Shown here: in pieces, positions 3,001-37,869 of the stretch
Layout: each line of letters opens with the position of its first letter
Numbering within the stretch: position 1 is the stretch's first letter
Origin: Candidatus Woesearchaeota archaeon
GTDB taxonomy: Archaea > Nanobdellota > Nanobdellia > Woesearchaeales > 0-14-0-80-44-23
Length of the DNA stretch: 64,000 nucleotides
NCBI GenBank assembly: GCA_038874135.1
Contig: JAVZCZ010000001.1
Coordinates: 751,219-815,218 of the forward strand
Direction: 5' to 3'
Translations under genes and position numbers: made by a program
Notes under the pieces: model-generated
The model's input: the letters and a program-made list of their open reading frames with translations, nothing else
Told to the model about the DNA's origin: nothing
Databases searched by the model: none

Positions 3001-3222
3001 GACTACCAAGAAGCCCTTGAACTTTATGATAAGATCTCCAAGGCATACTCACTGCTCCCTACAGAGTTCAAGTATGCAGTGTTCTCTGAATGTCTTGAGC
3101 TTCTAAACATTCTTGAAAGGGCAAGAAAAAACCAGAACAACTCTGAAAATCAAGCAGTAACCTTCAAAAAGAAAAAAAAGAGGTGCAGGTCAAAATCACA
3201 CGCCAAGGCGAGAAGGGCATAA
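1..3222 (+). CDS. Large glycoprotein-like surface protein with its N-terminus off-window. It has PKD-like and carboxypeptidase-regulatory-like Ig-fold modules, a C-terminal TM anchor and a helical cytoplasmic tail.
   Basis: ORF track gives 22..3222. The same frame is stop-free back to nt 1, so the true start lies upstream. 'YLWDFNNDN...GRYLVTLKVND' is PKD-like. 'ITVLNRLGEPLAGANITLGNTSAITNSSG' is CarboxypepD_reg-like. Module ends such as 'YNLTISCSDAAGNSAYT' recur. A hydrophobic stretch LAIQIVILVVLLTIYLVYTL lies near the C-terminus. N-x-S/T sequons are very dense. Confidence 0.75.
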   Translation, partial: CSYSSNYLEVQCSDEQAYGNASTYFYIFELPSVNTYEPNDSAIINSSSFQFEYEILPESSAYLVKNCALILDGTSCNSTDLPHNGTNSISCPFSEGSHTWKVLCTLIGSGQETIESQERGFFADYSPPNINLINPNQPAYNSDVPIEFNITDSASSSFNCTISGIPAPFNLSSLVSYSSKLNLPVGKYNLTISCSDAAGNSAYTWQEFERINLSVSTDKKYYIPMENVFITLNAPPSQTNISVSKGNFTLSKTTTPPYPIVYIFTSSNEPGDYLVQAFTTYNNITFTANTSFSVNITRNLTLSISANTTTAEPGVRILFYSNVSGNLTPVTYLWDFNNDNLPESSLPNTEYSFSQPGRYLVTLKVNDSYSSASASINITVLSRANLSITVLNRLGEPLAGANITLGNTSAITNSSGAAVMQNLLQGTYPINVTATNYNSYFNTVDISSNKNITIYLQELTEEPEILITEPTDGATITSLPITIRFKANLSYPTNCTLYKNEQQSWWEQLSQMAVTNNTENTLSVANLTDGQVLLRIVCTDVFGNSGTQQISLNISTLPKEPQYPELDQAEEELYTKQEYYNSIGPAQLEAAQLLGIPDMLSDAQNRLTLARRDLSDLSYSKKSPEEKEARKSEIISDAVSRINAIPDSIQVLSSYEQIHYPTQQELEKVAAPFISANSLKIDQRTFLRANSPLIELITINTKAFSIVLNYNGESREVSVIKHSVQLSQQLNESAISNLMLILNIPKQIADSAAGITFMDRYGQKVVKDDPIFSLPVTSEIVYQINKSIDANSASEISLLLVSKSASVSIPGISGLAVSQTRYSIWPFNLIGGKIGSSLAIQIVILVVLLTIYLVYTLQPEIISRSADALGNHIKNLRPRSENRMKQIVHAEKSIPTTLQNNLASMPQQQTYSPIQQQVVPIGPGMQHSYIAYRMQRALQLAEQNNYEEASAAYYELKFLYNTLSSHEKSLLYPQLLNLGHKLNISYIRQLVSEAKLKVNSDYQEALELYDKISKAYSLLPTEFKYAVFSECLELLNILERARKNQNNSENQAVTFKKKKKRCRSKSHAKARRA

Positions 3223-5564
3223 TTTGTGCTCTGCTTTTAGGAATTGTAACTATAATCTTAGGTAGTTATGCCTGCGCTTTGGAATTTTCACCATCTTCAA
3301 TTAACGAAGTGCTTTCTATTAACAAGTTTGTTCAGAAAAACATAACTTTGAAGAATGAACTCTCCTATCCGGTAAGGATTGCTCTGGTGCCCTCTTCTAA
3401 CATTAGCGATTTATTAGACATCACTCCAAATTCTATTGAAATCGGGGCAAGAGAGTCAAAGAATGTTCTGGTTACAATATACGGAAATGTTGATCCTATA
3501 AAATTTATTAATCGCTCGTATTACATCTTTAATGGCTTCATAAAGCTTGAAGGAGCTAACGCTCAAATACCTACGGACTTGATGGTCACTAATGGAACAA
3601 TAAACCTGCCCAGCAGCATGGTGCTTTCAGCATCGGCAGGTAAGGATTATTTCACTAAATCAGAAAATCTCTCTTTTATAATTGTTGTAACGAATCTTAT
3701 GACAGGCTCAAAACCAAATGTTACTCTTTTCTATTATTTCCTAATTGATAAAAACTCAGAAATTCCCGTTGGGAACGATTCCTTCATAATTACTACTTCA
3801 AAATCAGTTGTAAAGGAATTCATACCAATGTCTTCAATACCTGATGGCACCTATACTTTCAGGGTTGTAATGTCTTATGCAGATAAGAAGAGTGTTGCTG
3901 ATGTGCCCTTCAGGATATCAACCCCATTTATATTCAGAACATTCTTAGGTATAGCTGTATGGCAGTATATACTCGGAGTGATTGCCTTAATAATAATTGG
4001 CTTGTTAGTATACTGGCGAAGGAAGCGTGTTTTGGCTTCTCGTCGTTATGGTGTGAGTGTGGATTTGCGTAGTTTTCCTTCTTCTGGTAGGCTTGTGCGT
4101 TTGGGTAAGTTGGCGGAGTATGGGCGTGATTTTTGGTTTGATTTGGATGGTTTGACTACGCATTGTATTGTGGCTGGTGCTACTGGTGGTGGTAAGACTG
4201 TTGCTGCTCAGGTTTTGGTGGAGGAGGCTTTGAAGGCTGGTGTGGCTGTGGTTGTTTTTGATCCTACGGCTCAGTGGAGTGGTTTTTTGAGGCCTTGTTC
4301 TGATAAGGGTATGTTGTCTTTGTATTCGGGTTTTGGGTTGCGTCGTTCTGATGCTCGGGGTTTTCCGGGTAATGTGAGGCAGGTGTTGGATGCTCGTGAG
4401 GTTTTTGATGTTAGGCGTTTTATGCGTCCTGGTGAGATTGAGATTTTGAGTTTGAATAGGTTGAGGCCTGAGGAGATTGATGTTTTTGTGGCTAATACTG
4501 TTAGGAGCGTGTTTGATGCGGGTTTGGATGAGTGTCGTGAGTTGAGGTTGTTGTTGGTTTATGATGAGGTGCATAGGTTGTTGCCGCGTTTTGGCGGTTC
4601 TGGTGAGGGTTTTGTGCAGATTGAGAGGGCTTGTCGTGAGTTTAGGAAGTGGGGTGTTGGTGTTGTTTTGATTAGTCAGGTTTTGTCTGATTTTGTTGGT
4701 GAGATTAAGGCTAATATTAATACTGAGGTTCAGATGAGGACTCGTGATGAGGGCGATTTGGAGCGTATTCGTGTTAAGTATGGTGATGCTTATCTTAGGG
4801 GTCTTGTGAGGGCTAGTGTGGGTACTGGTATGTTTGAGAATCCCGGTTATAATGGTGGTCGTCCTTTTTTTGTTAGTTTTAGGCCTTTGTTGCATAGTGT
4901 GGTTCGTTTGTCTGATGCCGAGTTGGGTGAGTATAATAGGTTGAATGGGGTGTTGGATGATTTGGAGTTTTGGATTGGCGAGTTGGAGCGTTTGGGTGTG
5001 GACGTGTTTGATTTGAGGTTGGAGTTGAAGTTGGCTTGGGATAAGTTGAGGGTTGGGGGGTTTGGGATGGTGGATGTTTATGTTGAGGGTTTGAGGCCTC
5101 GCGTGTTGGGCGAGTTTGAGCGTTTGGGGAGGCCTGTTCCTAAGCGTGAGGTTAAACGCCTTTCAGATGAGGAGCTTGCAAAGCAGAGGAAGCTGGCTGA
5201 GCAGAGCCGTGCAGAGTTTATAAAAAAGATGGGCATTAAAGAGCAGCAGTCCAAGCAGGAGGAAAAGAAGGAAGAACACATCGTGCAGCCTTACACTTTT
5301 GATAATGGTGCAATGGTTTCGGAGCTTAAGGAGTTGAAAGACGCTATAGAACCTATGAGTGCTGACATCCTCAGAAGCGCGTTGAGTGGAAACAATAAGC
5401 TTTCTGATTGGATAAAGAATGAGCTTAAGAATGAGCAGCTTGCCTCTGAAATTGAGAAGGCGAAGACGAAAAAGGAGATTCTTGATGCAATAACTGCTGA
5501 ACTTGATAAAGCAGAAAAGAGCAGTGAGAAATCTGGAACTGATAAAGGCCAAAAGTCTAAGTAG
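3183..5564 (+). CDS. Membrane-anchored HerA/FtsK-superfamily (DUF87-like) P-loop ATPase, paralog 1. Order: signal-anchor, ~250-aa extracellular domain, TM, cytoplasmic ATPase, Lys/Glu-rich tail with a conserved C-terminal module.
   Basis: Walker A AGATGGGKT is at nt 4173-4199 and Walker B LLLVYDEVH at 4548-4574. 'REFRKWGVGVVLISQ' is a HerA/DUF87-type motif. The TM GVIALIIIGLLVYW is followed by RRKR (positive-inside). The track start is GTG 3183, which overlaps the upstream ORF by 40 nt, so the exact start is uncertain. Confidence 0.8.
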   Translation: MQVKITRQGEKGIICALLLGIVTIILGSYACALEFSPSSINEVLSINKFVQKNITLKNELSYPVRIALVPSSNISDLLDITPNSIEIGARESKNVLVTIYGNVDPIKFINRSYYIFNGFIKLEGANAQIPTDLMVTNGTINLPSSMVLSASAGKDYFTKSENLSFIIVVTNLMTGSKPNVTLFYYFLIDKNSEIPVGNDSFIITTSKSVVKEFIPMSSIPDGTYTFRVVMSYADKKSVADVPFRISTPFIFRTFLGIAVWQYILGVIALIIIGLLVYWRRKRVLASRRYGVSVDLRSFPSSGRLVRLGKLAEYGRDFWFDLDGLTTHCIVAGATGGGKTVAAQVLVEEALKAGVAVVVFDPTAQWSGFLRPCSDKGMLSLYSGFGLRRSDARGFPGNVRQVLDAREVFDVRRFMRPGEIEILSLNRLRPEEIDVFVANTVRSVFDAGLDECRELRLLLVYDEVHRLLPRFGGSGEGFVQIERACREFRKWGVGVVLISQVLSDFVGEIKANINTEVQMRTRDEGDLERIRVKYGDAYLRGLVRASVGTGMFENPGYNGGRPFFVSFRPLLHSVVRLSDAELGEYNRLNGVLDDLEFWIGELERLGVDVFDLRLELKLAWDKLRVGGFGMVDVYVEGLRPRVLGEFERLGRPVPKREVKRLSDEELAKQRKLAEQSRAEFIKKMGIKEQQSKQEEKKEEHIVQPYTFDNGAMVSELKELKDAIEPMSADILRSALSGNNKLSDWIKNELKNEQLASEIEKAKTKKEILDAITAELDKAEKSSEKSGTDKGQKSK
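4021..5176 (+). repeat. ATPase cassette copy 1. This 1156-bp block is identical to 8201-9356, and its coding strand is G+T-rich.
   Basis: Base-by-base reading matches 8201-9356 at an offset of 4180. The sense translation and the long antisense ORF translations (4005..4895 vs 8191..9075) are identical in the ORF track. Line 4081-4140 contains 6 A and 6 C out of 60 nt. Flanking line 3901-3960 contains 17 A and 13 C. Confidence 0.95.
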
Positions 5565-5941: not shown

Positions 5942-6101
5942 TGAATGCCTGGCATGGGTTGATGAAAAGGTAAAGAATAGAAGCTTTGCTAATCGGAGCC
6001 ACGGCTTTGAATTTTTAATAGCGCGATTCAAGGAGCGCCAAGAACTTCAGAATCTTCTCAACTCGCGAAATTCAAAGGAGGAAGACTTAAAACATGAATA
6101 A
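5910..6101 (+). CDS. Ribbon-helix-helix (CopG-like) DNA-binding protein 2, a tandem paralog.
   Basis: 'QRITITLDSECLAWVDEKVKNRSFANRSHGFEFLI' is paralogous to the upstream RHH. The track start is TTG 5904 and the first ATG is 5910. It overlaps RHH1 by ~32 nt and overlaps the start of the 1180-aa gene by 8 nt. Confidence 0.7.
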   Translation: MKQRITITLDSECLAWVDEKVKNRSFANRSHGFEFLIARFKERQELQNLLNSRNSKEEDLKHE

Positions 6102-9100
6102 AAATCCTACCTTCAGGATACTGGAACGGGACAGGCAGCTGGAAAGGAGAAGACAGCAGCTGTACATCCTATTAGGCATCTTAGGAGTTTTACTAGCAGT
6201 TGGTGTTATACTTCTGATAAGAATGTTCATAGGATACGCAGTTCTGGAAAGCAGGGCTGGCACAATAACACAACTTAATATACAGCTCAGATACTCAACA
6301 CACATATGGGCTGGATTTTACGGATTGGCATTCCGCGTTCCCGGATACACTGAGCAGCAGTCTGCAGTTGCAGTCGGCGGCACAGTCTTCTTGCAGCACT
6401 TAGTATTTGACTGCTTAAAAACTACAGACGGCAACATTCCTGAGGTATATGCCAGTACTTCAAGAAACATTGACTGGAATTCACTCCAGCCAGCAACTCC
6501 AGACTTGATTGACAGCTACCTACAAGTAGATCCTTCAGATATAACCTCTGCTTCAAACACATTTACAGAAACAATGTCAATACTCTTAGGAGACAGAGAA
6601 ATCACAAATATTGCTGCAACGCACACCAAAAAGTTCGGAGTTCCGGACAGCACGGACTTTGATATAGGCTTCTTAAAAGATTCGTTGGGAAATCTCGTAT
6701 TTGTAACCCATGTAACTCCAACTTATACCAAAGGATTTAACAACCAAACTATAAACTACCAAATGCTCCTTCCAGTACAAGCAGGAACAGCTCCAGTATA
6801 CTACTTCTTCTCAGACCCATATGACGAGTGCCAAGCAGGGCTTGAAGCTCTCAAAAATGCTACCATATTCGGAAGAGCCATAGACAATGCAACAGGCCTT
6901 CCACTTGAAAATGTTACAGTTAATCTTCATACTGCTACAGTTCTTACCAACTCTACAGGAGACTATTACATAGCAATATTTAACGGCACCTACACCCTAG
7001 TAGCTTTCAAGCCGGGATATTACACCTTTGTTGCAACAAACATCACTCTCCCAGCTGACAATCTGTCTACACCTCAATCTGAAAATATTGTCGAATTTAA
7101 TATATCCCTCATTCCCAACCCTGGAAACCCAACTGGACTCGGAAACCTAACTGGCACTGTAACTGATAAAGACTTCGGAATACCCCTCTATAATGTAACA
7201 GTGTATGTAAACGGCAGAATCGCTAAGACAAACATTACAGGCCAATACCTACTTGAACTGCCAGCAGGAAATCATTCTCTTATAGCAATGAAGGAAAACT
7301 ACAGAACATACTACACTCCAAATGTAACTATACTGCCTGGAAACACCACTGAATTTAATTTCAGTATGGAATATGCAGAGCCAGAAATAAAAGAAACTCC
7401 TGGATATCCGCTAAATACCTTCGTTTCCAACCTACTCAAACAGGCAGTGCAGAGGCCTCAAATAATACTCACTCATAAGATTGATACAAAAGAGATATTT
7501 GAAACATTAAAAGTTGGCTCATATGTCCAGCGCTCATTCAATATAACGAGTTACAGGCCTGCCGAGTCCAAAGTTGAGTTTGAAGTCATAGGAAGTGCTG
7601 CACAGCTGGTAAAGGTTGACAAGAGCAGCTCAATAATACCTCCAAGGGGTGCAGAAAACTTCACCCTTACAATTCTAGCCAATGTGCCTCCAGGCATATA
7701 TACCGGAACATTCCTAATCAAAGGAGACCTTGAAGACAGAATCCCGATAAAGATAGTTGTTTATGAGAAGGATAGACTTCCAATAGAGGCTCTTCTCCTA
7801 GAAGTAGTGCCAATAAAAAAGATAATCAGCCCAGGAGAACTATTTGAATATAAGGTCAGCATGACAAACCTGCTGAGGGACACCCCATACAACATCACCC
7901 TTTCATACAATATCACCTCGCGCTCTTCAAATCTTACTATTCCCGTTGAAGAAGAGACGAGACTCTTGGAAACTCAGCTTTCCTACCTTAAGTATTACAA
8001 GCTTCCCAAAGACCTGCCAGAAGGAGAATACTTCCTTGAAACTAGAGCGGAATTCTTAGAACTATCAACAAACACAAAATCGCTATTCATAGTTAAGAAG
8101 CCAATTTACATGTATGCATTATTCGGAATACTTCCCCTCTGGCAGCTTTTCATAATAATAGTTTTCACCTCCCTCATGACCTTCGCAGGATTAATGTATC
8201 GGAAGCGTGTTTTGGCTTCTCGTCGTTATGGTGTGAGTGTGGATTTGCGTAGTTTTCCTTCTTCTGGTAGGCTTGTGCGTTTGGGTAAGTTGGCGGAGTA
8301 TGGGCGTGATTTTTGGTTTGATTTGGATGGTTTGACTACGCATTGTATTGTGGCTGGTGCTACTGGTGGTGGTAAGACTGTTGCTGCTCAGGTTTTGGTG
8401 GAGGAGGCTTTGAAGGCTGGTGTGGCTGTGGTTGTTTTTGATCCTACGGCTCAGTGGAGTGGTTTTTTGAGGCCTTGTTCTGATAAGGGTATGTTGTCTT
8501 TGTATTCGGGTTTTGGGTTGCGTCGTTCTGATGCTCGGGGTTTTCCGGGTAATGTGAGGCAGGTGTTGGATGCTCGTGAGGTTTTTGATGTTAGGCGTTT
8601 TATGCGTCCTGGTGAGATTGAGATTTTGAGTTTGAATAGGTTGAGGCCTGAGGAGATTGATGTTTTTGTGGCTAATACTGTTAGGAGCGTGTTTGATGCG
8701 GGTTTGGATGAGTGTCGTGAGTTGAGGTTGTTGTTGGTTTATGATGAGGTGCATAGGTTGTTGCCGCGTTTTGGCGGTTCTGGTGAGGGTTTTGTGCAGA
8801 TTGAGAGGGCTTGTCGTGAGTTTAGGAAGTGGGGTGTTGGTGTTGTTTTGATTAGTCAGGTTTTGTCTGATTTTGTTGGTGAGATTAAGGCTAATATTAA
8901 TACTGAGGTTCAGATGAGGACTCGTGATGAGGGCGATTTGGAGCGTATTCGTGTTAAGTATGGTGATGCTTATCTTAGGGGTCTTGTGAGGGCTAGTGTG
9001 GGTACTGGTATGTTTGAGAATCCCGGTTATAATGGTGGTCGTCCTTTTTTTGTTAGTTTTAGGCCTTTGTTGCATAGTGTGGTTCGTTTGTCTGATGCCG

Positions 9101-9636
9101 AGTTGGGTGAGTATAATAGGTTGAATGGGGTGTTGGATGATTTGGAGTTTTGGATTGGCGAGTTGGAGCGTTTGGGTGTGGACGTGTTTGATTTGAGGTT
9201 GGAGTTGAAGTTGGCTTGGGATAAGTTGAGGGTTGGGGGGTTTGGGATGGTGGATGTTTATGTTGAGGGTTTGAGGCCTCGCGTGTTGGGCGAGTTTGAG
9301 CGTTTGGGGAGGCCTGTTCCTAAGCGTGAGGTTAAACGCCTTTCAGATGAGGAGCTGCAGAAGGAAAAGGAGATTGCTATGCAGGAACATGAGAAAGCAA
9401 AACAGCAGGAAGCAGGACAAACTTCACAAAATTCAGATTCCAAGACAGAAACTTCCCAAATTCAAAACACAAAAGTTGAAGAGCAGCCCAGCCAAAATGA
9501 AAAGGCCGAGAACCAAGAGAATGCAAAATCCTCAAATGAAAATAAAATTAAAAGAGTAAGGGAGGGTAAAAAGCAGAGGATGAGGAAATCAGCAAGTTCG
9601 GAAAAAAATAATAAAAAAAGAGGTGCTAAAAAATGA
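6094..9636 (+). CDS. Membrane-anchored HerA/FtsK-superfamily ATPase, paralog 2. Order: N-terminal TM, ~650-aa extracellular region with CarboxypepD_reg-like and Ig-like modules, TM, the identical ATPase domain, acidic/basic low-complexity tail.
   Basis: N-terminal TM is LYILLGILGVLLAVGVILLI. 'GRAIDNATGLPLENVTVNL...GYYTF' and 'GTVTDKDFGIPLYNVTVYVNG...ENYRTY' are carboxypeptidase-regulatory-like. The second TM is LWQLFIIIVFTSLMTFAGLMY followed by RKR. The ATPase domain is identical to the one in 3183..5564. Confidence 0.8.
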   Translation: MNKNPTFRILERDRQLERRRQQLYILLGILGVLLAVGVILLIRMFIGYAVLESRAGTITQLNIQLRYSTHIWAGFYGLAFRVPGYTEQQSAVAVGGTVFLQHLVFDCLKTTDGNIPEVYASTSRNIDWNSLQPATPDLIDSYLQVDPSDITSASNTFTETMSILLGDREITNIAATHTKKFGVPDSTDFDIGFLKDSLGNLVFVTHVTPTYTKGFNNQTINYQMLLPVQAGTAPVYYFFSDPYDECQAGLEALKNATIFGRAIDNATGLPLENVTVNLHTATVLTNSTGDYYIAIFNGTYTLVAFKPGYYTFVATNITLPADNLSTPQSENIVEFNISLIPNPGNPTGLGNLTGTVTDKDFGIPLYNVTVYVNGRIAKTNITGQYLLELPAGNHSLIAMKENYRTYYTPNVTILPGNTTEFNFSMEYAEPEIKETPGYPLNTFVSNLLKQAVQRPQIILTHKIDTKEIFETLKVGSYVQRSFNITSYRPAESKVEFEVIGSAAQLVKVDKSSSIIPPRGAENFTLTILANVPPGIYTGTFLIKGDLEDRIPIKIVVYEKDRLPIEALLLEVVPIKKIISPGELFEYKVSMTNLLRDTPYNITLSYNITSRSSNLTIPVEEETRLLETQLSYLKYYKLPKDLPEGEYFLETRAEFLELSTNTKSLFIVKKPIYMYALFGILPLWQLFIIIVFTSLMTFAGLMYRKRVLASRRYGVSVDLRSFPSSGRLVRLGKLAEYGRDFWFDLDGLTTHCIVAGATGGGKTVAAQVLVEEALKAGVAVVVFDPTAQWSGFLRPCSDKGMLSLYSGFGLRRSDARGFPGNVRQVLDAREVFDVRRFMRPGEIEILSLNRLRPEEIDVFVANTVRSVFDAGLDECRELRLLLVYDEVHRLLPRFGGSGEGFVQIERACREFRKWGVGVVLISQVLSDFVGEIKANINTEVQMRTRDEGDLERIRVKYGDAYLRGLVRASVGTGMFENPGYNGGRPFFVSFRPLLHSVVRLSDAELGEYNRLNGVLDDLEFWIGELERLGVDVFDLRLELKLAWDKLRVGGFGMVDVYVEGLRPRVLGEFERLGRPVPKREVKRLSDEELQKEKEIAMQEHEKAKQQEAGQTSQNSDSKTETSQIQNTKVEEQPSQNEKAENQENAKSSNENKIKRVREGKKQRMRKSASSEKNNKKRGAKK
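8201..9356 (+). repeat. ATPase cassette copy 2, identical to 4021-5176.
   Basis: Evidence is the same as for copy 1. It is in the same codon phase in its host ORF. Identity ends at ...gatgaggagct, followed by g at 9357 versus t at 5177. Confidence 0.95.
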
Positions 9637-21600: not shown

Positions 21601-24600
21601 CAAGTTATTGCATACGACACCTTTGGCAATTATAAATATTCAACAAATTACTTCTCATACATAACTGACACTTTGGCACCTTCCATCGTGCTAAATATGC
21701 CGGGAAATCTTTCATTCATAAATTCTACACAAGTCAACTTTACATTTACACCTTCAGATGCTAACACGATATCAAGATGTACTCTCTACCTAAATGTCAC
21801 AGGAGCATTCCTCCCTAACACAAGTATAACTCAAGTTGTTAAAGACACTCCAAATTTAATACAAGCTGAAATTAAAGATGAGGGCGCCCACTTGTGGAAT
21901 ATCCTGTGTAATGATAGCGCAGGAAATTCTGCGTTTGCTCCTCAGAACTTCACCTTTATTTCAGATCTTAACCCGCCCTCAATACAACTATTAAGTCCTC
22001 CCAACGGCAGTACATACAACATTTCCAATTTTGTAAATTTCACTATAAATGCATCTGATAGGATATCCGCAGTATACCGCTGCACACTCATAATAAATGG
22101 ACAGCCCGTTCTTACTTCTTATTCTGTGCAGGACGGAGTGCCATACACATTTCAGTATTTCTTGCTGAATGGAAATTACTCCTGGCAGGCAGAATGTTAC
22201 GACTTAAACGGTCATTCAAACCTTTCTTATTCCTACAACATTTCAGTTTTAGTTATTGATTCAGTACCTCCAATCGTAACCTTAACTAGCCCCGCACAGG
22301 ACCAATACCTTTCCAGTAAAACAGTACTATTCAATTATACTCCGCAAGACGCTACTGGAATAAAGAACTGCACCCTATTTATTGATGGCAATGAAAACGA
22401 AACTGACTTTTCTGTTAGGAACTTGGAACCAAACTACTTCTTATTAGAATACTTAGAGGACGGGGTTCATAACTGGACTGTGCTCTGCTTTGACAATAGC
22501 AGCCAGCAGAACAGCTACGCACCCACCCCTGTAAGGTTCTCAATAGATACAACTCCGCCATCAGTAATTCTTATCTCTCCAGAAGATGGAGTTCTTACTA
22601 ATAATTCTCTAGTCACCTTTGTATACGCACCATCAGATGCAAATCTTGAAAATTGCTCCCTCTACACTAATTCTTCTAGCGAGTGGATGATGGAATCAAC
22701 AGACTTCTACCCAATTAATAATCAGCAGAATGTTTTTCAAAAATCAGTTGCGGATGGAGTTCTCGTTTGGAATGTTGTTTGTTATGATAAGGGCGGGCTC
22801 TCCAGCTTTGCTGACTTTAACCGAACATTGAATGTTGATACAACTCCGCCGCGATACGCCAATATAACTCTGATCCCGACAAGCCCAACTGAATATTCAC
22901 CTTATGGGGAGTATTACTTTAATATAACATGGATTGATGATTTTAATTTGTCATCTGTATATTTTGAGAGCAACTTTTCAGGAACCTTTGAGAATGAGAG
23001 TCCCAACCACTTTGAAAACATTTACTATGTTCACAAGACAGGTCTTAACTCAGGAACATACCAGATTAGGTGGTACGCTACTGATTCGGCAAAAAATCAG
23101 AACGAAACCCCGGCAATTCAGTATGATATAACTAAAGCAGAGCCTAACCTTACTTTAAAAATAAACAATTATTCTTATAATTTGACTGTTGAGGAAGATA
23201 GCATAGTTAATATCTCAGCAGAGCTCTTAGAGCCACCCGGAGCATACCTCTCTATTTATATTAACAATAATCTCATTACTAACGGAACTTCTCCTATTTA
23301 TACTACTTACAACTTTACAGAGCCTGGATCTTATAATGTTACTGCGAGCTTTGAAGGAAGCCAAAACTACCTTTCAGCATTCAGAACAATAATTGTAAAT
23401 GTCTCAGACACTACACCCCCAATTATAGTTCCCATCTTCCCGCAGAATAACTCATTCATAGGGGAAAATCACATTGTATTTTCTTACAATGTAACTGACA
23501 GCAGCCAAATTGCCAACTGTTCTTTATTCATAAATAGAACATTAAACCAGAGCAATACCAGCATACAGAATGGAATAAACTACTTTGAAGTTGACTTTCA
23601 AGATGGCAACTACTCCTGGCACCTCTCCTGTTATGACGAGTTTTCAAACTATGCTGAAAGCCCGGAGATATACTTCACTTCAATAAGGTCAGATAAAATA
23701 ATTGCTTCAGCACATCCTCAACAGCCGCAGTACCAAAAGGGTGAAACGGCAATACTTATAGGAAATACTACGAGCATCTTCGGAACACCATTAGATACAA
23801 ATATTTATGCTAATGTAATAAGAGGCAATACTACGATAGAATGGTGGAACACTTCATTCAAATACAGAAGGCCTATATTTATAAATAACTCAATGAACGC
23901 TTCAACATACTTGCAGGCGCTAATCAACATTTCAAACCTTAGCGCTTCAATTTCTAACTGTTCTGAACTCAGAATTGTAATGAACAACTCTTTTGAGCAC
24001 ACCCTAATCCCCTCAGAAGTACTCTTAGAAGAGGGAAATGCTTCGTGCCTGCTAAGATTTAATGCGAATGCTTCTGCACTCGCCACGAATGAGAACAACT
24101 ACTATGTATATTACGGAAACTCAGGAGCAGGAGCCCAGCAGCAGCTTCCAGAACTTGCAGGCATATCAGTACAGCGTAAGTCTGTTGTGGGAACTACAAC
24201 TTCAATCACTGATACGATGAGTGAGGTGAATACTTCAAGAGCGTTCCTGCTTTTCAGCGCCAATGTCGCCAGCTCAACTCCTGCAGTTTGGGAAATAACG
24301 GGAAGAATATTATCCTCAACGCAGGTAGTGTTTGAAAGATACTCGGGAACCACATCTGCAAATATATCCTGGCAGGTTATAGAAGGCTCAGAGATTAATG
24401 TGCAGAGGGGAACCGCATCATTTGGAGCTACACAATCAAATACTACAATACTTATAGATAGTGTTAATCTAAACGAGTCTTTCATAATAATAACCGGAAG
24501 GACCAGCAGCACCACAGCAGGGAATGCAAACATGGGCTTCTTTAGGGCAATGTTCCTTAACTCTACTGCAATTTATATTGAAAGGGCTACAACTGGAAGC

Positions 24601-26487
24601 ACTGCTGTTGCAGAATGGCAGGTAGTTTCGTGGAGTGGTGCGAGAGTGCAGAGTGGAAACATCTCTTTCATAACAGCTTCGCAGAGCGTCCCCATAGAAG
24701 AGGTTAATCTTTCCAGGAGCATGCTGATATTCAGCACTGCTGTAACTGGCAACACCAGGATAGGAGCTAACATGATTTTTGGCAACTTTACCAATTCCAC
24801 AACAGCATACTTCTCAAGAACGAATGCTGCAGGAACAGCATATGTTTCCTGGTTTGCAGTTGAGCTTCCCCAATACTACTCAGTACAAGCCGGAACAGTT
24901 TCAATCACAGCAGATACCAATGTTCAAATATACCCCGTGCGCACTGAGAAGACATTTCATCTGCACTCAGCTTCAGCAGTAGGAGCAACCAGCACTACCT
25001 ACTCTGATGCCCTAATAAGAGCCGAGCTAACAAATAGCTCAAATCTTATGCTGGATAAGGTGTCTGGCACAAATACCAACTATGTTGCCTGGTTTGTAGT
25101 AGAAGAAAAATATCTTTCAGCTAATTCGGGAATGGAAGAAGCTTTAATGGCATACAACTACAACTCCACATTGACAGGGCTTTACACTCTAAGTTGGGTT
25201 TCCGGAAAGAGCCCGGTGGGCAACTACACCTTTGTATACTCTGCAACAAAAACTAATTACTCATCTGCAAGGGCATACTCCACATTTGAGATAATTCCAG
25301 ACACAACTCCGCCCAATGTTACGCTTGTAAGCCCACTTCAACTTGAAAAGAGGGGCGTCGGAAATATAATCTTTTCCTACATACCTTATGACTTGAACCT
25401 TCTAAACTGCACACTCTACCTTGGAAAGGACGGAACTTTTTCTCCGAACATTACGAGCACGAGTCCAATAAATAATGCAGTAAACAATCTTTCAGTATAC
25501 TTAGACATCGGATTATACACTTGGAATGTGCTTTGTAGGGACAGTGAAGGAAACTCTGCATTTGCTCTGCAGAACAGGACACTTAACATAACAGGCCCAG
25601 ACCTATACCCTGTTGCTGTTTGGTTTAGCAACACGCCCAGGATTGAGACCGTTAACACAACCATCTTTGTTAACATTTCTAATAAGGGGCTTTCTGATTG
25701 TACTAAAAACTTCACTGTTGAGTTCAGGAGAAGTGGGCTGCTCATAGGCAATCTGAGTGTGCAGGGGCTGCTGATTGGCGAAGTTAAAAGCTTGAACTCT
25801 TCATTCCTGTTAGGTCCCGGCATTAATAATTTAAGTATTAGCATAGATCCTGATAACAGGATTAACGAGTCGGACGAGTCAAACAACAATGCTTATGAGG
25901 TTATTGCTGTTGAGTTTTATCAGTACTATTACGGAAATCTTAGCTTTTTACAGGTTTTGAGCAAGTCCTCAAACGAGTCTGTATTCACTTGGGAAAATTC
26001 AAATCCTGAAGATGGGGTTATTTTAGTTGCTGATATTGATTCAAAATTTGAGATTGGAAACTTAAGAGCCCTGACTCGGAATGCAAATGGGGATCCAGTT
26101 ATAAATGATCTTTCAGAATTGGATGAGGCTTTTAATTCTTCAAATCTTAACGATTCTATTAAGAATGTGTGGGGAAACGGCACTGACATTCCAATAATGA
26201 CTGCCAACTTTACGATAGGACAGTTTAATATTTCTAACGTTCCGGTAGCATATTCCAGAAATTCCACTTCTTCAATTACGGGAATACTCTGGGACTCTGC
26301 AGATGATTTAAGCCACAACCTTCAGTATGACAGCTCTGATAGGGAAGATATAGTTCTAATCACAAAGATTCACCCGTTAGCAGACTGTTCTTTTGGTAGC
26401 TGCAATTATGAGATAAGAATTCCAGCAGCTCTACGCTCTTACAAGCCTAACACCGACCTCGTAGTTTTTTACACCATGCTAAACTGA
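18649..26487 (+). CDS. Giant (2612 aa) secreted/surface protein, a paralog of the 2346-aa gene. It has a propeller-like repeat region, Ig-like modules, a DUF2341-like region, four ~85-aa repeats and CARDB.
   Basis: ATGA overlap start. The N-terminal ~330 aa and C-terminal ~350 aa are homologous to the 2346-aa protein (e.g. ELWKCTDWNYDAQYC vs ELWKCREYDFSTRSC). Repeats of ~45-51 aa with F-V-x-G-W-x-D run over ~19670-20720. 'WWNTSFKYRRPIFINN...NNYYVYYGN' at ~23840-24125 is DUF2341-like. A CARDB-like stretch lies at ~25600-25900. Confidence 0.85.
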   Translation: MKRSITFGIIFLLLIALSLKISSASCPEIILSSNTTIKDVDIKIKVSGQTQESELVIRTPSGPYRLLGDIPSLTSFTPKDVGNYSVEVWQDKVLCDIKNFTALPHNNSTLFLPPILSTDKKEYHLGEAVRISLSPEYYGYSIEGLNLKLLTGQQSYSLLGEISEDIEFRPVFEGNYTILLLDSIGNTLASESFSVYALNSYFVNNLSIKKRFSDKFEYNISTNSEDMIVEFSNSFIKRLNLKKLSSSNLAIVRISELLPEERSRLNIPTIGGEIKESFELDPSALNFSEGELTIVPSGNELWKCTDWNYDAQYCVGSWIKQQNLVPGVENVIKFNLSDPGYAIVATANITSIAAATLSENSFVVAYCDDTNDRTAFKVFWANGSVRTNEVIVDSTTGNCGYTSVSVSALTNNSFVIGWIDTASSYASFAVYDASGNVITPRVDVDTTAGTSRSVSVSAFNSSAFVFGWYDQASAYASFRTFSSSGVAISSVVNVDTTAGTCNAVSVSAVNSSAFVFGWYDQASSDMTFRTYTSSGVAISAVTDVNTKVGTGSFSVSVAAYNSSAFVIVWYDQRLGYVSFRQYSVAGVQIGSQVNPDTAVGTTASGVFVSSVGVNSSVFAVGWNDLTTDVVSSVRTYSGAGAAVSSEVVVQANALKYNALAGYYPATGIGFCNGNFVAIIVNTSSQAFFKAYMPNGSEWDGNCPDVIPPQVVLNSPQQAAVFYSDTVDFNFTVTDNVDLVIPNCTLWINTSSTFSPNITIYNITSNKMNNITLSQIPDNKYIWNVRCYDNAGNSAFASSNFSLFINKNPPQILNPLLNESTVNQSHSVKFNVSITDSYGIDSAYITMMYPNGSSNNYYLNRSGNEFYFIINNTIQIGTYSVIYVWANDTLGQNSSLTLSDLQFNVTPSPPAQFNLLSPPNATESTNLRPNLTWETSYDETFLNYTIQISQDENFATVLFTYYNPGVYNTSRVLDYALEANKKYYWQVIAYDTFGNYKYSTNYFSYITDTLAPSIVLNMPGNLSFINSTQVNFTFTPSDANTISRCTLYLNVTGAFLPNTSITQVVKDTPNLIQAEIKDEGAHLWNILCNDSAGNSAFAPQNFTFISDLNPPSIQLLSPPNGSTYNISNFVNFTINASDRISAVYRCTLIINGQPVLTSYSVQDGVPYTFQYFLLNGNYSWQAECYDLNGHSNLSYSYNISVLVIDSVPPIVTLTSPAQDQYLSSKTVLFNYTPQDATGIKNCTLFIDGNENETDFSVRNLEPNYFLLEYLEDGVHNWTVLCFDNSSQQNSYAPTPVRFSIDTTPPSVILISPEDGVLTNNSLVTFVYAPSDANLENCSLYTNSSSEWMMESTDFYPINNQQNVFQKSVADGVLVWNVVCYDKGGLSSFADFNRTLNVDTTPPRYANITLIPTSPTEYSPYGEYYFNITWIDDFNLSSVYFESNFSGTFENESPNHFENIYYVHKTGLNSGTYQIRWYATDSAKNQNETPAIQYDITKAEPNLTLKINNYSYNLTVEEDSIVNISAELLEPPGAYLSIYINNNLITNGTSPIYTTYNFTEPGSYNVTASFEGSQNYLSAFRTIIVNVSDTTPPIIVPIFPQNNSFIGENHIVFSYNVTDSSQIANCSLFINRTLNQSNTSIQNGINYFEVDFQDGNYSWHLSCYDEFSNYAESPEIYFTSIRSDKIIASAHPQQPQYQKGETAILIGNTTSIFGTPLDTNIYANVIRGNTTIEWWNTSFKYRRPIFINNSMNASTYLQALINISNLSASISNCSELRIVMNNSFEHTLIPSEVLLEEGNASCLLRFNANASALATNENNYYVYYGNSGAGAQQQLPELAGISVQRKSVVGTTTSITDTMSEVNTSRAFLLFSANVASSTPAVWEITGRILSSTQVVFERYSGTTSANISWQVIEGSEINVQRGTASFGATQSNTTILIDSVNLNESFIIITGRTSSTTAGNANMGFFRAMFLNSTAIYIERATTGSTAVAEWQVVSWSGARVQSGNISFITASQSVPIEEVNLSRSMLIFSTAVTGNTRIGANMIFGNFTNSTTAYFSRTNAAGTAYVSWFAVELPQYYSVQAGTVSITADTNVQIYPVRTEKTFHLHSASAVGATSTTYSDALIRAELTNSSNLMLDKVSGTNTNYVAWFVVEEKYLSANSGMEEALMAYNYNSTLTGLYTLSWVSGKSPVGNYTFVYSATKTNYSSARAYSTFEIIPDTTPPNVTLVSPLQLEKRGVGNIIFSYIPYDLNLLNCTLYLGKDGTFSPNITSTSPINNAVNNLSVYLDIGLYTWNVLCRDSEGNSAFALQNRTLNITGPDLYPVAVWFSNTPRIETVNTTIFVNISNKGLSDCTKNFTVEFRRSGLLIGNLSVQGLLIGEVKSLNSSFLLGPGINNLSISIDPDNRINESDESNNNAYEVIAVEFYQYYYGNLSFLQVLSKSSNESVFTWENSNPEDGVILVADIDSKFEIGNLRALTRNANGDPVINDLSELDEAFNSSNLNDSIKNVWGNGTDIPIMTANFTIGQFNISNVPVAYSRNSTSSITGILWDSADDLSHNLQYDSSDREDIVLITKIHPLADCSFGSCNYEIRIPAALRSYKPNTDLVVFYTMLN
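19969..20624 (+). repeat. Propeller-blade cassette copy 1. This 656-bp block is identical to 30550-31205, and its coding strand is G+T-rich.
   Basis: Base-by-base reading matches at an offset of 10581. Three reading frames translate identically in the ORF track: the sense frame, antisense 19867..20799 vs 30460..31284, and +frame 20012..20227 vs 30593..30808. Line 20041-20100 contains 7 A and 9 C out of 60 nt. Confidence 0.95.
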
Positions 26488-26655: not shown

Positions 26656-27150
26656 ATGCCAATTTTAAAGAAAGAGCAACCAACTGCATTTCAGGAGCCA
26701 CCTAAAGAAGTGCCGCCCTTGGCGCGGGAGATAATTGAAAGGAGCAAGATAGCTGGGCATACCGAACTTCCTCAGGAACTTCCACGAATTGCCGAATTGG
26801 TTGAAAGCCCAAAACAGGAATATCCAATACCACAAGAGTCAGCTCACGCTTCCGACGACATAAAAGAAGTGAAAGAACGCCTTGAACGAATAGAATCCTT
26901 GCTCAGAACTGCTGTTCCGGGAAAATATCTCATACTGAGAGATGGGAAAGTACTTAAGAACATTGCCGATTTGAGAAGCGCTTTAGCCACGATGAGTTCG
27001 GAAACATTCAATTTGCATGTCAACTTTGAGAGGAATGACTTTGCAAATTGGGTTAGGAATGTCTTCTTGGAAAAAGAGCTTGCTGATAAGTTGGATGGAG
27101 CCACGAGCAGGGCTCAGATGATTAGAATTTTAAACGAATATTTTGACTGA
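26656..27150 (+). CDS. Small cytoplasmic protein carrying a conserved ~70-aa C-terminal module shared with two membrane proteins of the locus.
   Basis: 'LILRDGKVLKNIADLRSAL..SETFNLHVNFERNDFANWVRNVF' aligns with the C-termini of the 844-aa ORF (35335..37869) and the 793-aa ATPase ORF. It has no signal peptide. Confidence 0.6.
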   Translation: MPILKKEQPTAFQEPPKEVPPLAREIIERSKIAGHTELPQELPRIAELVESPKQEYPIPQESAHASDDIKEVKERLERIESLLRTAVPGKYLILRDGKVLKNIADLRSALATMSSETFNLHVNFERNDFANWVRNVFLEKELADKLDGATSRAQMIRILNEYFD

Positions 27151-33679: not shown

Positions 33680-35338
33680 TTAATATCTCCTTACAAAGTC
33701 TACAAATGTTTCTAAAATCTTTAGCTGGTAAGATGCAAATCCCTGCTTGAACAGCAGTCTGTTCTTTCTGCGCAGGTTGTAAATTATGGCAATTTCCTTC
33801 CTGGGGCTTAGCTCCTTAACTTTGAGTACAATCTCCTCATTTTCAATTGAATTCTCAACCTCAGCAGCAGGCTCCTTTTCAATTTTTATTTCTCCTTCTA
33901 TGCTCCCTCCCAGAGCTCCTGGCTCATGCACCTCAATGTTGTAAACTGGAGCGCTTCCCACATTTCTGATAATTAATTCTACCTTATAAAGTCCGATTTT
34001 TTCTAAAGAAACATTTCTCTTTATCAACAGAGGCTCCTTCCTCCTGGATATGTACTTCATTGTTTCCTTGCCTAAAAGGAAGAGAATTGATATGCTTAGT
34101 AGTATAAGGAATAAAATTTTTAGAGTGGTGCTCTGTAATAACTTGATAATTCTTGATGGTGCCTGCTTCTTAGGCTTCTTAACCGCATCTAAAGTGATGC
34201 TGTAATTTCCATCAGTTCTGTTATTATATTTTATAAGAATATCAGGTGCACCGTTAGAGTTGATGTCTGCGGGAGCAGTGGAATATTTGTTGAATAAGAA
34301 TCCAGGACCGCCGAAGAATCCTATATAAATCATGTCCCCTTTTATTGGAGTTAAGGTTAGGAAGTAGTTTGTGCCTTCATAAGTAAAGAACCAAATTGGT
34401 CCTTTATACATTGTCACATTAAACTCGTCCTGTTCAGCAAAGTTTCCTATATAGATTATTTCTGCTTTTGTGAACAGCCTTCTCTCTTCAGGCGTCAGCT
34501 CTCTTACAGGCGTCTGATTTGTAATGTTTTTCTTCTCTTCCGGCGGCGGTGGTGGCATTCCTCCTCCCCCACCGCTTTTTTCCTCTCCAGGCTTTTCAGG
34601 ACCCTCATTCGTTATATTCGGCATAGTAAAATTTCTTGGTATCACATTTAGCACGAAAATATCGTGAGTTGCGTTGCAGCCGTCAAACGCCACTATGGTT
34701 ATTAAGAAGGTGCCCACGCTTTTAAGCCGAGTAGATATCTCTCCCGTGGTTGAATTTATTTCAAACAGCTCGGTGTTGTCTGAAAATGTTATATTATCTC
34801 CGTCGGGATCTGTTGCCTTTACTATTGTTCTGAAAAAGTCATACTGAAACATTGTGATTGAGCCCAAAGGTTCCAGTACTGGCGGTTGGTTTCCTACACA
34901 ATACCTAAACCTGAACCACTGGCTCCAATCACCATAGCTCTCATTATCAAATCCCCGTACTCTCCAAAAGTAGTCGCCTTTTGAGTAGGTAATGCTCAGG
35001 TTTGAATAGTTCGTCTGCTTATCGCCCTCTGGTATGTCTTCTGTTTCAAATGCTAAGAAAGAGAAGTTGTTATCAAGTCCAACATGTAACTGGTATGTTA
35101 TTTTGTCCAAGTTGTAGTCTATGGAATTGTTCCAAAGGTAGTAAGAGATTTCTGAATCTTCAAATATCAGAGAGTTATTCTCAGGATATACTAAGCGCGG
35201 GGGTGTCGGAGGTGCATTTTCTACATTTACTTCTGAAACAGCCATGCCTGTTTTTTCCAACCTGCTTCTTAGAAAAAGCACTAACCCAACTATTAATATT
35301 GCAATTCCCACAGCGCTTTTTATCCTGTTCAAGTTCAT
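33680..35338 (-). CDS. Membrane protein with FN3-like and cadherin/dystroglycan-like extracellular modules.
   Basis: N-terminal TM is AVGIAILIVGLVLFL. 'NQPPVLEPLGSITMFQYDFFRTIVKATDPDGDNITFSDNTELFEINSTTGEIS' is cadherin-like. There is a Gly/Pro-rich linker and a second TM, LKILFLILLSISILFLLG. The start overlaps the upstream gene's stop by 4 nt. Confidence 0.7.
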   Translation of the reverse strand: MNLNRIKSAVGIAILIVGLVLFLRSRLEKTGMAVSEVNVENAPPTPPRLVYPENNSLIFEDSEISYYLWNNSIDYNLDKITYQLHVGLDNNFSFLAFETEDIPEGDKQTNYSNLSITYSKGDYFWRVRGFDNESYGDWSQWFRFRYCVGNQPPVLEPLGSITMFQYDFFRTIVKATDPDGDNITFSDNTELFEINSTTGEISTRLKSVGTFLITIVAFDGCNATHDIFVLNVIPRNFTMPNITNEGPEKPGEEKSGGGGGMPPPPPEEKKNITNQTPVRELTPEERRLFTKAEIIYIGNFAEQDEFNVTMYKGPIWFFTYEGTNYFLTLTPIKGDMIYIGFFGGPGFLFNKYSTAPADINSNGAPDILIKYNNRTDGNYSITLDAVKKPKKQAPSRIIKLLQSTTLKILFLILLSISILFLLGKETMKYISRRKEPLLIKRNVSLEKIGLYKVELIIRNVGSAPVYNIEVHEPGALGGSIEGEIKIEKEPAAEVENSIENEEIVLKVKELSPRKEIAIIYNLRRKNRLLFKQGFASYQLKILETFVDFVRRY

Positions 35339-37869
35339 TTTATTCCGTTCAATATTTTCAGCATTTCTTCCTTATTTCTTGCTTTTCTTAATCTTGCCGC
35401 TAAATTCCTATCCCTAATCTCGTCCCTTATCCAATCTGCAAGATCGTTCCTTTCAAAATTGACATGGTAGTTGAAAGTGTCAGAGTCGGCATATTTAATC
35501 TCCCTTTTGAGTTCTTCTATACTTCTAACAACTCTCCCATTGTAAAGATGCAGGGGATTTATTTTAAGTCCGCATTCACTTTTGGGCTGATTTGAGCTTT
35601 TCAATTCTTTTTCTTCTCCACTCTTAACTTGGCTTCTTATTTCTTCTAACCTTTTTATTCTACTTCTCAACTCTTCAGCTTCCTCTGGAGAAAGATCTCT
35701 TGGATCTATGCTTTTTAACTCTTCAAGCACAGAATCAACATTCTGTACATCTTCTTTTTCTTCCAGCAAGCCTTCTTCTCCGCTGAATTCATCTTCATAA
35801 AAAGTTTCCTTTCCCATTCTGAAATAATAAAATGCAAGAGCCGTCACAATAAAAACACCCATCACTATTCCAACATATTTTGAACTGCTTCTTAAAGTTT
35901 CAAAAACAGAATATCCGCTTATATTGTTTTTTTCATAAGTCGGCTTTTTAAGTAGGACTGATTTTATACTTCCCAAATCGCTTTCTGATACTTTAGAGTT
36001 TACTACGAACTTGATAACATTTTCTTTTCCATTTGTGGGGAAGCCTATTATAGGGTCACTTTGGATTATTGTGTAGCCCTTGCTTATGAAGCGAAGTTTA
36101 GATACATCTTCTGCAATGTTTTTCGGAATCAGCATTACAATTGAGGAGTTGTTTTCTTCCTTATCTAAAATGAGTTTATCTTCAATAAATGTGATATGCT
36201 CAGTGGAGCCCTCATATATTATGCTTACAAGCCTTCCGGAAATCAACTGCTTAACTCCTTCCTGTTCAGAGCTGACCTTCTTTATATAGTCTAAGTCTCC
36301 AGAATTTTGCGGGTAAGTCTTTGAAATGGCAGACACCACATCTTCGTTGTTTGCCCTTACTTCAACTTCTGAGTAGTTCGTTAATTCTAAACTTAGAGGA
36401 ACAGCACTTAGCAGCGATCTTAATGCTATCTTCTGCCTTGAAACCTCAGAAAGTATGTCTTCATCTTTTGAAGTGCTCGTTCTTAACCCTTTCAATTCTG
36501 AGATTACTCCTTCAAGTCTCATCAATGAGTTTTGCGCCTCTTCTAATAAGCCGGTTGCATCCAGAATTTCTGAAGGGATTTCTTGCATTTTTTGGATTCT
36601 CTTCTGAATTTCCACCTTAGCAGCTTCTGCAGAGCTTATCGCTTCGCCTATACTCCTTATTGTTTGCGGGGAAAGTTCAGAATCAACATCACTTTTAACA
36701 GCTATCGCACTTACCTCATTAGAAAGCCCGCCTTCATTTCCAGCCAGGTCAACTGCTGATACTGCGTAGTAATATGTTTTTCCTTCCGCTACATTTCTAT
36801 CAACATAATATGTTTCACTAGTCTTATCGTAGTAATCCAGATAGCTTACTCCAGTTGAAGAGCTTCTATATATTCTAAATTCTGATATGTTATCCCCTTC
36901 AAATCTTATACTTAAATTTATCTTACCATCTTTTTGAGATGAAGCGCTTAGGATTGGCGCTTCAGGTGCTACTGTATCTATTATGAAAAGTTTTCCAGAA
37001 GTTATTAGGTCCCCACTTGTGCCATAGTAATCAGTACCCCTGAATGAAAAAGAGCCTATCTTGTTTCCCATACCCTTATCAATTATGAGATACCCGCGCC
37101 AAACCCTTCCAGAACCGACTAGGTCTATACTTTTTATGTTATCATCCACCTTATATGTTAATATTGGCGTTGGTACTAATTCAGTTGAAGCTGTTAGAGT
37201 AACCTCATACAGCCCATCCTTCAATGGTGGATTTTTTGAGAGCGAAATCTGAGCATAGACTGGACTTCTCACATAAAAGTTTATAACTTGTTCAACCTTG
37301 TTTCCAACAGAATCAAAACATCTTATCAGGTATGACTTTGGGCCTTGAGATAGTCCTGAGAGGATAGTTTGATGGCTGAAACCATCTGCACTTTCCAGTT
37401 GCCTTTTTACTCCTGAAGATTCGTAGGAACAGTTAGCCCTTTCATTAGTCGCAACGAACATCATAACATAATCTGTGCTTATTGAGCCAGAAGGCCCGCT
37501 TCCCACTATTAAGGGGGGTGTAGTGTCTACTGTAAAATTAATTAGAATCGGAGTGCTGCTCTCATTGTTTAAGTTGGTGCAGACGGCATAGAATTCATAG
37601 TAATCGTCTTCCAAGCTTAGGTTCAGCCAGTGTTCTGTGTCGTTACCCTGCATAAGATTTTCCATCTGTGAATATGTAACATTGTTTTCTGATATTCTGC
37701 AGAGAGCACTCTCGTTTGTTATTGTGAGAAGATTAACATTTTTATTATTGGTGTCTGCTGTTGGTGCATATGCAACTATCTTTGGAGCGGCAAGAGTGGA
37801 TGTTGCACACGCTATTGTGATAATCAGGATTATTATGTTCTCCTTCCACGAGATGTGATAATTTTTCAT
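35335..37869 (-). CDS. Large surface protein (844 aa) with Ig-like and FN3 modules, a TM, and a cytoplasmic tail carrying the shared C-terminal module.
   Basis: The signal is IIILIITIACATSTLAA. 'FRIYRSSSTGVSYLDYYDKTSETYYVDRNVAEGKTYYYAVSAVDLAGNEG' is FN3. The TM is YVGIVMGVFIVTALAFYYF. The C-terminus 'DTFNYHVNFERNDLADWIRD' matches the 164-aa ORF. Confidence 0.75.
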   Translation of the reverse strand: MKNYHISWKENIIILIITIACATSTLAAPKIVAYAPTADTNNKNVNLLTITNESALCRISENNVTYSQMENLMQGNDTEHWLNLSLEDDYYEFYAVCTNLNNESSTPILINFTVDTTPPLIVGSGPSGSISTDYVMMFVATNERANCSYESSGVKRQLESADGFSHQTILSGLSQGPKSYLIRCFDSVGNKVEQVINFYVRSPVYAQISLSKNPPLKDGLYEVTLTASTELVPTPILTYKVDDNIKSIDLVGSGRVWRGYLIIDKGMGNKIGSFSFRGTDYYGTSGDLITSGKLFIIDTVAPEAPILSASSQKDGKINLSIRFEGDNISEFRIYRSSSTGVSYLDYYDKTSETYYVDRNVAEGKTYYYAVSAVDLAGNEGGLSNEVSAIAVKSDVDSELSPQTIRSIGEAISSAEAAKVEIQKRIQKMQEIPSEILDATGLLEEAQNSLMRLEGVISELKGLRTSTSKDEDILSEVSRQKIALRSLLSAVPLSLELTNYSEVEVRANNEDVVSAISKTYPQNSGDLDYIKKVSSEQEGVKQLISGRLVSIIYEGSTEHITFIEDKLILDKEENNSSIVMLIPKNIAEDVSKLRFISKGYTIIQSDPIIGFPTNGKENVIKFVVNSKVSESDLGSIKSVLLKKPTYEKNNISGYSVFETLRSSSKYVGIVMGVFIVTALAFYYFRMGKETFYEDEFSGEEGLLEEKEDVQNVDSVLEELKSIDPRDLSPEEAEELRSRIKRLEEIRSQVKSGEEKELKSSNQPKSECGLKINPLHLYNGRVVRSIEELKREIKYADSDTFNYHVNFERNDLADWIRDEIRDRNLAARLRKARNKEEMLKILNGIK

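Follow-up and report, generated by a model that had tools for sequence, protein, structure and literature searches.

The stretch of DNA analysed here (the window) comprises 64,000 nucleotides (nt) of contig JAVZCZ010000001.1 of a Candidatus Woesearchaeota archaeon. It carries a gene cluster in which three proteins have a C-terminal helical domain of about 75 residues in common, hereafter called the module. One of them, orf164 (26656..27150, + strand), is a soluble protein of 164 amino acids (aa); its N-terminal half is rich in P and E, and a charged helix and the module are its other parts. The second, p844, is an 844-aa surface protein of the type-I membrane class (gene at 35335..37869, - strand) with a signal peptide, a glycosylated ectodomain, a transmembrane (TM) segment and a cytoplasmic tail. 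In the third, ATPase-1 (3183..5564, + strand), an N-terminal TM/signal segment is followed by a small ectodomain, a TM segment (nt 3939-4022), a P-loop domain of the HerA/FtsK type, a linker and the module. The module makes up the last 76 residues of both orf164 (residues 89-164; 26920..27147, + strand) and p844 (residues 769-844; 35338..35565, - strand), and in ATPase-1 it covers residues 701-776 (5283..5510, + strand). That these three C-termini align had been proposed in an earlier reading of the DNA (the original prediction); the stretches translate as quoted there, and the alignment was borne out by BLASTP, which paired orf164 with p844 (E 3e-17, 42% identity over 69 aa), p844 with ATPase-1 (E 6e-10) and, weakly, orf164 with ATPase-1 (E 0.002, 18% identity). 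Archaeal NOG1 and L10e are also encoded in the window, and the assemblies with the same locus include GCA_038731275.1, GCA_038871545.1 and GCA_038872315.1.

The relationship was also significant in a profile search. A family hidden Markov model (HMM) was derived from 185 modules of unrelated database proteins, with the sequences of the window, their orthologues and the ATPases all left out. With this profile E values of 2.8e-30 (orf164), 2.1e-25 (p844) and 1.2e-15 (ATPase-1) were obtained, the ATPase-1 copy being divergent and devoid of the His and Asp residues characteristic of the family. The score of this copy was 57.8 bits, compared to a maximum of 11.1 across approximately 2,000 shuffles. 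In the six-frame translation of the window exactly three open reading frames (ORFs) were matched, and the next match had an E value of 0.27; no fourth, hidden or decayed module was found in the paralogous ATPase-2, in the tail of a 1,066-aa surface protein (see below for both) or in any of the six frames. The AlphaFold model of the orf164 module (predicted local distance difference test score 95.3) consists of a short beta-hairpin and five helices. These observations and the model indicate that the three copies are one homologous module that is predicted to fold independently. Neither Pfam nor structure comparisons yielded a match between this small domain and a catalytic family.

In the two membrane proteins the module had been predicted to be cytoplasmic, and this location agreed with hydropathy, with the distribution of sequons and with the positively charged inner flanks. 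In p844 the hydropathy peak defines a TM segment at residues 665-684 (35818..35877, - strand); all 13 of the 13 N-glycosylation sequons precede it, and an R/K-containing, positively charged flank follows. The cytoplasmic tail then starts with an acidic, charged linker (residues 685-768; 35566..35817, - strand), which leads to the module. In ATPase-1, RRKR follows the TM segment (residues 253-280); next come the P-loop domain, a charged linker (5177..5282, + strand) and the module. The linkers of the two proteins align with each other (BLASTP). The C-terminal position of the module is kept in the 912-aa p844 homologue P0097 and in the p844 orthologue of the related locus L093.

The third copy had been described as a free-standing soluble protein. 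A full-length scan of orf164 detected no TM segment, signal peptide or sequon, in agreement with a soluble protein, but orf164 is not a bare module, since its N-terminal half (88 residues) is conserved among orthologues. Full-length orthologues with 78% and 51% identity were found with synteny kept, and the gene is identical in five assemblies. The 51% identical orthologue occupies the equivalent position, 3' of a gene for a 2,663-aa giant protein, and is followed by matching genes, including that of a p844 orthologue with a C-terminal module. Within the N-terminal half, residues 38-45 (26767..26790, + strand) form the linear motif LPQELPRI, which is of the type [VLI]P.[DE]LP.[LIVM] and reads VPDELPTL in the orthologues. 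Motifs of this type were found near the N-terminus of 24 of the 152 top module proteins, where shuffling predicts 0.055, and in none of the 119 module ORFs of the loci from GTDB genomes described below, most of which are glycogen clusters. The VPDELPxL-type motif is probably a peptide ligand of some partner. As judged from the sequence, the combination of the module with an over-represented linear motif gives orf164 the anatomy of an adaptor. The same type of motif was also seen in a 234-aa ORF without module (17837-18538), which lies between the two ATPase genes of the related cluster L165.

The module could be linked to a known family. The Pfam family DUF5752 (PF19027; gathering threshold 23 bits) was approached but not reached by p844 (20.6 bits, E 3.1e-4) and orf164 (18.1 bits, E 1.7e-3), and ATPase-1 had no match to it. 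These matches are confined to positions 14-79 of the 208-position model, which correspond to one repeat. Conversely, a profile made of the three copies retrieved small proteins annotated with PF19027, and close relatives are named 'DUF5752 family protein' by NCBI. The same profile matched the sequence of OrfY of Thermoproteus tenax (PDB 4CSO) with an E value of 2.4e-5. Two regions of OrfY were hit (around residues 63-85 and residues 135-186), and both contain NDF..W. The double match shows DUF5752/OrfY to be a tandem of two repeats, of which the window proteins have one each: about 210 residues of OrfY and of the Pfam model accommodate two repeats, whereas in each window protein a single repeat, with the hairpin and five helices of the OrfY-repeat fold, was found. 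Single-repeat relatives are common in the databases. These profile matches mark the module as a sub-threshold variant, with a single repeat, of DUF5752/OrfY, a known but uncharacterised family. What differs is the context. The window copies reside on a membrane ATPase, on the tail of a surface protein and on a motif-bearing adaptor and not in an alpha-glucan/trehalose cluster. This fusion context is missing from public annotation; the precomputed Pfam lists for the ATPase homologues omit the module. The literature searched contained nothing usable on DUF5752, OrfY or 4CSO. The orfY gene is said to adjoin treT.

The hallmark of DUF5752/OrfY is F..HV, four to five residues, NDF..W and then LA, and the consensus of the module can be written as ..YF.L.NG..l.nL.EL...L..Md..tF..HVn...NDFa.Wi..v..d..LA..l..a.tkeEm. 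In the family alignment N39 and W44 are invariant, and G9, L18, F30, H33, D40, F41 and L54 are conserved in at least 90% of the sequences. In most ATPase-1 homologues the loop reads FKQHVN..KND.ADW, and in the window ATPase-1 it reads 'ILRSALSGNNKLSDW'. The degenerate form is kept in relatives 76-79% identical to ATPase-1, and a 66% identical relative has the canonical loop. The hallmark loop is thus dispensable for retention of the ATPase-1 copy.

When 1.84 billion representative sequences were searched exhaustively with HMMER, 4,884 clusters belonged to the family at an E value of 1e-3 or below, and 3,210 at 1e-10 or below. Of the 152 best representatives in the databases, 84 had at least two modules, and architectures vary very widely. 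The simple ones are small proteins with a solitary module, tandem pairs, and proteins of about 400-480 aa that have two modules at the C-terminus; membrane proteins have either an N-terminal module and a C-terminal anchor or, in type-I proteins, a C-terminal module; and the ATPase architectures include a KaiC-like fusion and membrane HerA ATPases of 1,300-1,970 aa with CarboxypepD_reg ectodomains. In a set of 271 module proteins 198 had no TM segment, 48 were tail-anchored with the module at the N-terminus and 25 had a TM segment before the module. Charge bias placed the module in the cytoplasm in all 73 of the 73 membrane-tethered members, which make up 27% of the set (K+R counts to either side of the TM segment, module side first: 4.4 versus 1.6 and 3.1 versus 0.1). 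A model of the natural tandem protein P0008 had a predicted template modelling score of 0.63, and only about one of its repeats could be superposed on OrfY.

To survey gene neighbourhoods, GTDB genomes were scanned with the pattern ERND[FL][AS][NDE]W[IV], which gave 80 loci, mostly from Woesearchaeota, Nanoarchaeota, metagenome-assembled genomes (MAGs) labelled Methanosarcinales, Aenigmatarchaeota and bacteria of the candidate phyla radiation (CPR). This sample is motif-biased: the pattern favours canonical copies and is blind to degenerate ones such as that of ATPase-1. Pfam searches identified alpha-glucan genes at 46 of the 80 loci, namely GH57 amylase at 44, GT4/5 at 42, GT3 glycogen synthase at 30 and amylo-alpha-1,6-glucosidase (GDE_C) at 21, whereas a HerA-type ATPase was encoded within 10 kb at only 2. 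The original prediction had implied that the module is specific to surface/ATPase systems, and this specificity was not borne out by the survey; the possibility foreseen there, that the module is ubiquitous and unconnected with surface or ATPase genes, thus holds in part. Typically GT4/5 and GH57 came first, then a small protein whose module is C-terminal and a tail-anchored one whose module is N-terminal, and last glycogen synthase. At least two module genes occurred at 35 of the 80 loci, and in 27 of these they formed a conserved adjacent pair consisting of the small and then the tail-anchored protein. One such pair is that of locus L007 (9914-10249 and 10279-11049). The members of the pair represent distinct subfamilies, with identities of 41.6% and 36.0% inside the subfamilies and 34.3% across them.

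The strong association with alpha-glucan genes raises the alternative of a ligand-sensing or regulatory role for the module, which would bind an alpha-glucan, trehalose, a sugar phosphate or a nucleotide sugar through its His/Asn/Asp/Trp loop and report the carbohydrate status to its fusion partner, be it a GH57 amylase, a membrane ATPase or the tail of a surface protein. The four GTDB loci with GH57-module fusions, laid out as hydrolase plus binding module, would fit such a role, and so would the near-invariant polar and aromatic residues H33, N39, D40 and W44 and the position of the bacterial homologue P0001 directly upstream of GlgE, a TreS-like amylase and GlgB. However, no alpha-glucan or trehalose genes were found in the 64 kb of the window, and the module of ATPase-1 and its close relatives is conserved although the His and Asp are missing. 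Moreover, F41, W44 and the N-D pair may be mere core and helix-cap residues, and the helical module is, to our knowledge, unlike known carbohydrate-binding modules. We regard a ligand-sensing role as unlikely.

The connection with ATPases was examined in 120 homologues, those that best match the cytoplasmic part of ATPase-1, annotated as Woese-, Pace- or Nanoarchaeota. A C-terminal module was present in 118 of these 120 DPANN proteins. Eight related ATPase clusters were then compared with the window, with 10-kb flanks; the window's own orf164 and p844 lie beyond this distance from the ATPase genes. Cluster L156 encodes three module proteins, the homologues of ATPase-1 and ATPase-2 and one of 187 aa in which the module is N-terminal. 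There are four in L163, where the two ATPases hold three modules between them and the others are a 181-aa protein and a 393-aa protein with two modules and an N-terminal signal/TM segment (residues 1-29). Both ATPases of L158 and L162 have the module, in L014 the ATPase is accompanied by an adjoining 223-aa module protein, and in L159, L164 and L165 the ATPase stands alone within 10 kb. These sequence comparisons support a real link between the module and the ATPases in DPANN archaea, and to this extent the predicted tie to surface and ATPase genes stood.

The comparison also bears on a second alternative, according to which nothing but domain shuffling is at work: the module would be a stable, mobile helical cap, autonomous or binding a general cytoplasmic factor, and the three proteins of the window would be unconnected. 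The size of the family and the range of its architectures, from solitary, tandem and tail-anchored forms to fusions with GH57, KaiC-like, HerA and type-I membrane proteins, are what such a cap would produce; in addition, ATPase-2 of the window functions, or at least persists, without the module, and in five of the nine ATPase clusters there was no module gene other than those of the ATPases within 10 kb. On the other hand, module genes are clustered far beyond expectation, as the 35 loci with two or more of them and the 27 adjacent pairs illustrate, and several module proteins recur in a conserved cluster across species. Taking both sides into account, we consider mere shuffling improbable.

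A module at the end of a translocase-like ATPase could also be thought of as a DNA-binding domain, i.e. a counterpart of FtsK gamma on the ATPase and a small transcription factor where it is free-standing. OrfY was named 'transcription factor' by the depositors of 4CSO, ATPase-1 falls into the HerA/FtsK/CedD-like superfamily of DNA translocases, and small proteins embedded in operons are often regulators. The membership in the superfamily was seen in Pfam matches to DUF87 (37.8 bits, cut-off 23.2) and HerA_C (37.4 bits, cut-off 22); the NCBIfam equivalogs HerA and CedD were matched far below their thresholds, and therefore ATPase-1 can be classified as a superfamily member only. FtsK gamma, the C-terminal winged helix in a related family of translocases, resembles the module in being a small C-terminal domain attached by a flexible linker to a HerA/FtsK-type motor, but its fold is unlike that of the module, and the module is acidic and occurs on non-ATPase proteins as well. 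The modules have a mean net charge of -1.6 and a median isoelectric point of 6.1 (4.7 for the ATPase-1 copy), and no winged-helix or other DNA-binding fold was found among their structural neighbours; these two properties, and the membrane tethering of more than a quarter of the members mentioned above, make DNA binding very unlikely. Among the structural neighbours the N-terminal domain of ViaA (PDB 7UGC), the partner of the AAA+ ATPase RavA, was considered and given no weight, as the similarity (5% identity over 58 residues, low Z) is of a generic helical kind.

The reading that we favour, tentatively, is that the module is a protein-protein docking unit coupling proteins of the same gene cluster. 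Modules on flexible charged linkers would bring such proteins together on the inside of the membrane; in the window these would be ATPase-1 (presumably a hexamer of the HerA/FtsK type), the tail of p844 and the soluble adaptor orf164, which would contribute its N-terminal VPDELPxL-type motif in addition. What we infer is binding of protein by the module and, in the window, of the three copies to each other; single repeats on separate chains would pair and thereby imitate the two-repeat state, the commonest form in the family. Three features speak for docking. Modules come in twos, both within the proteins (84 of 152 representatives) and at the loci (35 of 80, with the 27 adjacent pairs). The module is found on several different proteins per cluster in two unrelated systems, the carriers being GH57 fusions and small and tail-anchored proteins in the glycogen clusters, and ATPase-1, ATPase-2, small soluble proteins and TM proteins in the surface clusters. 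Finally, it is always cytoplasmic, stands at the end of a charged linker and has no catalytic signature. Its near-constant presence in the ATPase-1 homologues, its retention with synteny in the orthologues of orf164 and p844, and the adaptor-like anatomy of orf164 point in the same direction. Some observations weigh against docking: the ATPase-1 copy lacks the conserved His and Asp, five of the nine ATPase clusters offer no non-ATPase partner within 10 kb, and the strong link to alpha-glucan genes could point to a ligand instead. Furthermore, an assignment of complementary types, with orf164 and p844 resembling the second repeat and ATPase-1 the first, was left undecided by the small differences between the repeat-type identities (35.7% versus 30.4% for orf164, 25.1% versus 27.0% for ATPase-1).

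A more far-reaching version of the docking idea, which we put forward as doubtful, is that the DUF5752 repeat is a prokaryotic homotypic adaptor whose pairing across chains rebuilds the two-repeat unit, in the wiring of the window proteins as well as of the glycogen enzymes. HerA-type ATPases, the tails of surface-cluster proteins and VPDELPxL adaptors of DPANN archaea and CPR bacteria would then form membrane-attached assemblies, and at other loci GH57 and glycogen-synthase enzymes would be wired likewise. In the window, the hexamer of ATPase-1 would be the docking site for orf164 and for the tail of p844, whereas ATPase-2 without a module would remain uncoupled. The module would in this respect resemble the homotypic adaptors of the death-fold, SAM and PB1 types, and the principle of dockerin and cohesin, which are likewise small autonomous domains on otherwise unrelated proteins of the same pathway or cluster, often at the ends of flexible linkers and often paired. 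DPANN archaea possess large gene clusters for giant surface proteins and membrane ATPases of the HerA/FtsK type, and the module, whose fold is known from the solved structure of OrfY, marks nearly every ATPase of the ATPase-1 family and several of the co-encoded proteins. Mutual binding of the three tails, if true, would provide DUF5752 with its first function. The function of the module also bears on the small proteins within the DPANN/CPR glycogen clusters. If it is merely a shuffled cap or a sugar sensor, the findings amount to ordinary domain bookkeeping.

ATPase-2 (6094..9636, + strand) is a paralogue of ATPase-1; the motors of the two are identical, and the CarboxypepD_reg ectodomain of ATPase-2 is long. 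Beyond the identical stretch ATPase-2 ends in a low-complexity tail of Q, E, K and S. It had been said to lack the module, which is true in the window, but its orthologues in clusters L156, L158, L162 and L163 all have it, so the absence is, on this comparison, a recent loss; the organism that L162 comes from is a close relative (its ATPase-1 is 79% identical to that of the window). The gene directly after ATPase-2 (9633-10457, + strand) encodes a 274-aa basic protein without module, and at the equivalent position L156 encodes the 187-aa protein with an N-terminal module. The module-less state of both genes suggests that the lineage of the window lost two module copies near ATPase-2.

The two identical motors are encoded by a direct repeat of 1,156 nt (4021..5176 = 8201-9356, + strand; 100% identity, offset 4,180 nt), which covers the entire cytoplasmic motor domain in each ATPase gene and, in ATPase-1, stops 107 nt short of the module. 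Exact stretches of 1,240 and 1,066 nt are common to both ATPase genes in assemblies of other species (L156 and L162), and none linking the paired genes was found in L158 and L163. Cluster L157 has a single chimeric ATPase of 842 aa where L156 has two, and one MAG contig of the window's species breaks off about 120 nt into the motor repeat. By its pattern, the repeat seems to reflect repeated gene conversion or recombination involving the two ATPase paralogues. The repeat is also extreme in composition (4001-5200 and 8400-9200: GC skew +0.49 to +0.63, AT skew -0.37 to -0.52), with codons that are nearly all G/T-rich (GGT, GTT, TTG, CGT, AGG) and flanks that differ from it. A foreign cassette and strand-biased mutation are possibilities. 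The long antisense ORFs at 4005-4895 and 8191-9075 are by-products of this composition.

Between the ATPase genes and orf164 two giant secreted proteins of 2,346 and 2,612 aa are encoded (11612-26487, + strand). They have 132 and 128 N-glycosylation sequons and no C-terminal anchor. L093 and five assemblies of the window's species share this conserved arrangement. The conserved DPANN/CPR glycogen cluster, seen at L007 (7178-16085) and 45 other loci, consists of GT4/5, GH57, two DUF5752-repeat genes (one soluble, one tail-anchored), a GT3 synthase of 'eukaryote type', an NTP-transferase and GDE_C; the term 'DUF' does not occur in the first 300,000 characters of a 2024 review of alpha-glucan metabolism (PMC11046441). 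The gene of the 1,066-aa surface protein (22-3222, + strand) overlaps the start of ATPase-1, and hence the two may be translationally coupled. This protein has a helical cytoplasmic tail of about 210 residues (856-1066), in which matches to TPR or MIT domains were insignificant (E 0.085-0.8). The tail could be a second, different docking device. True TPR repeats were found after the module in the ATPase homologues P0188, P0224 and P0258.
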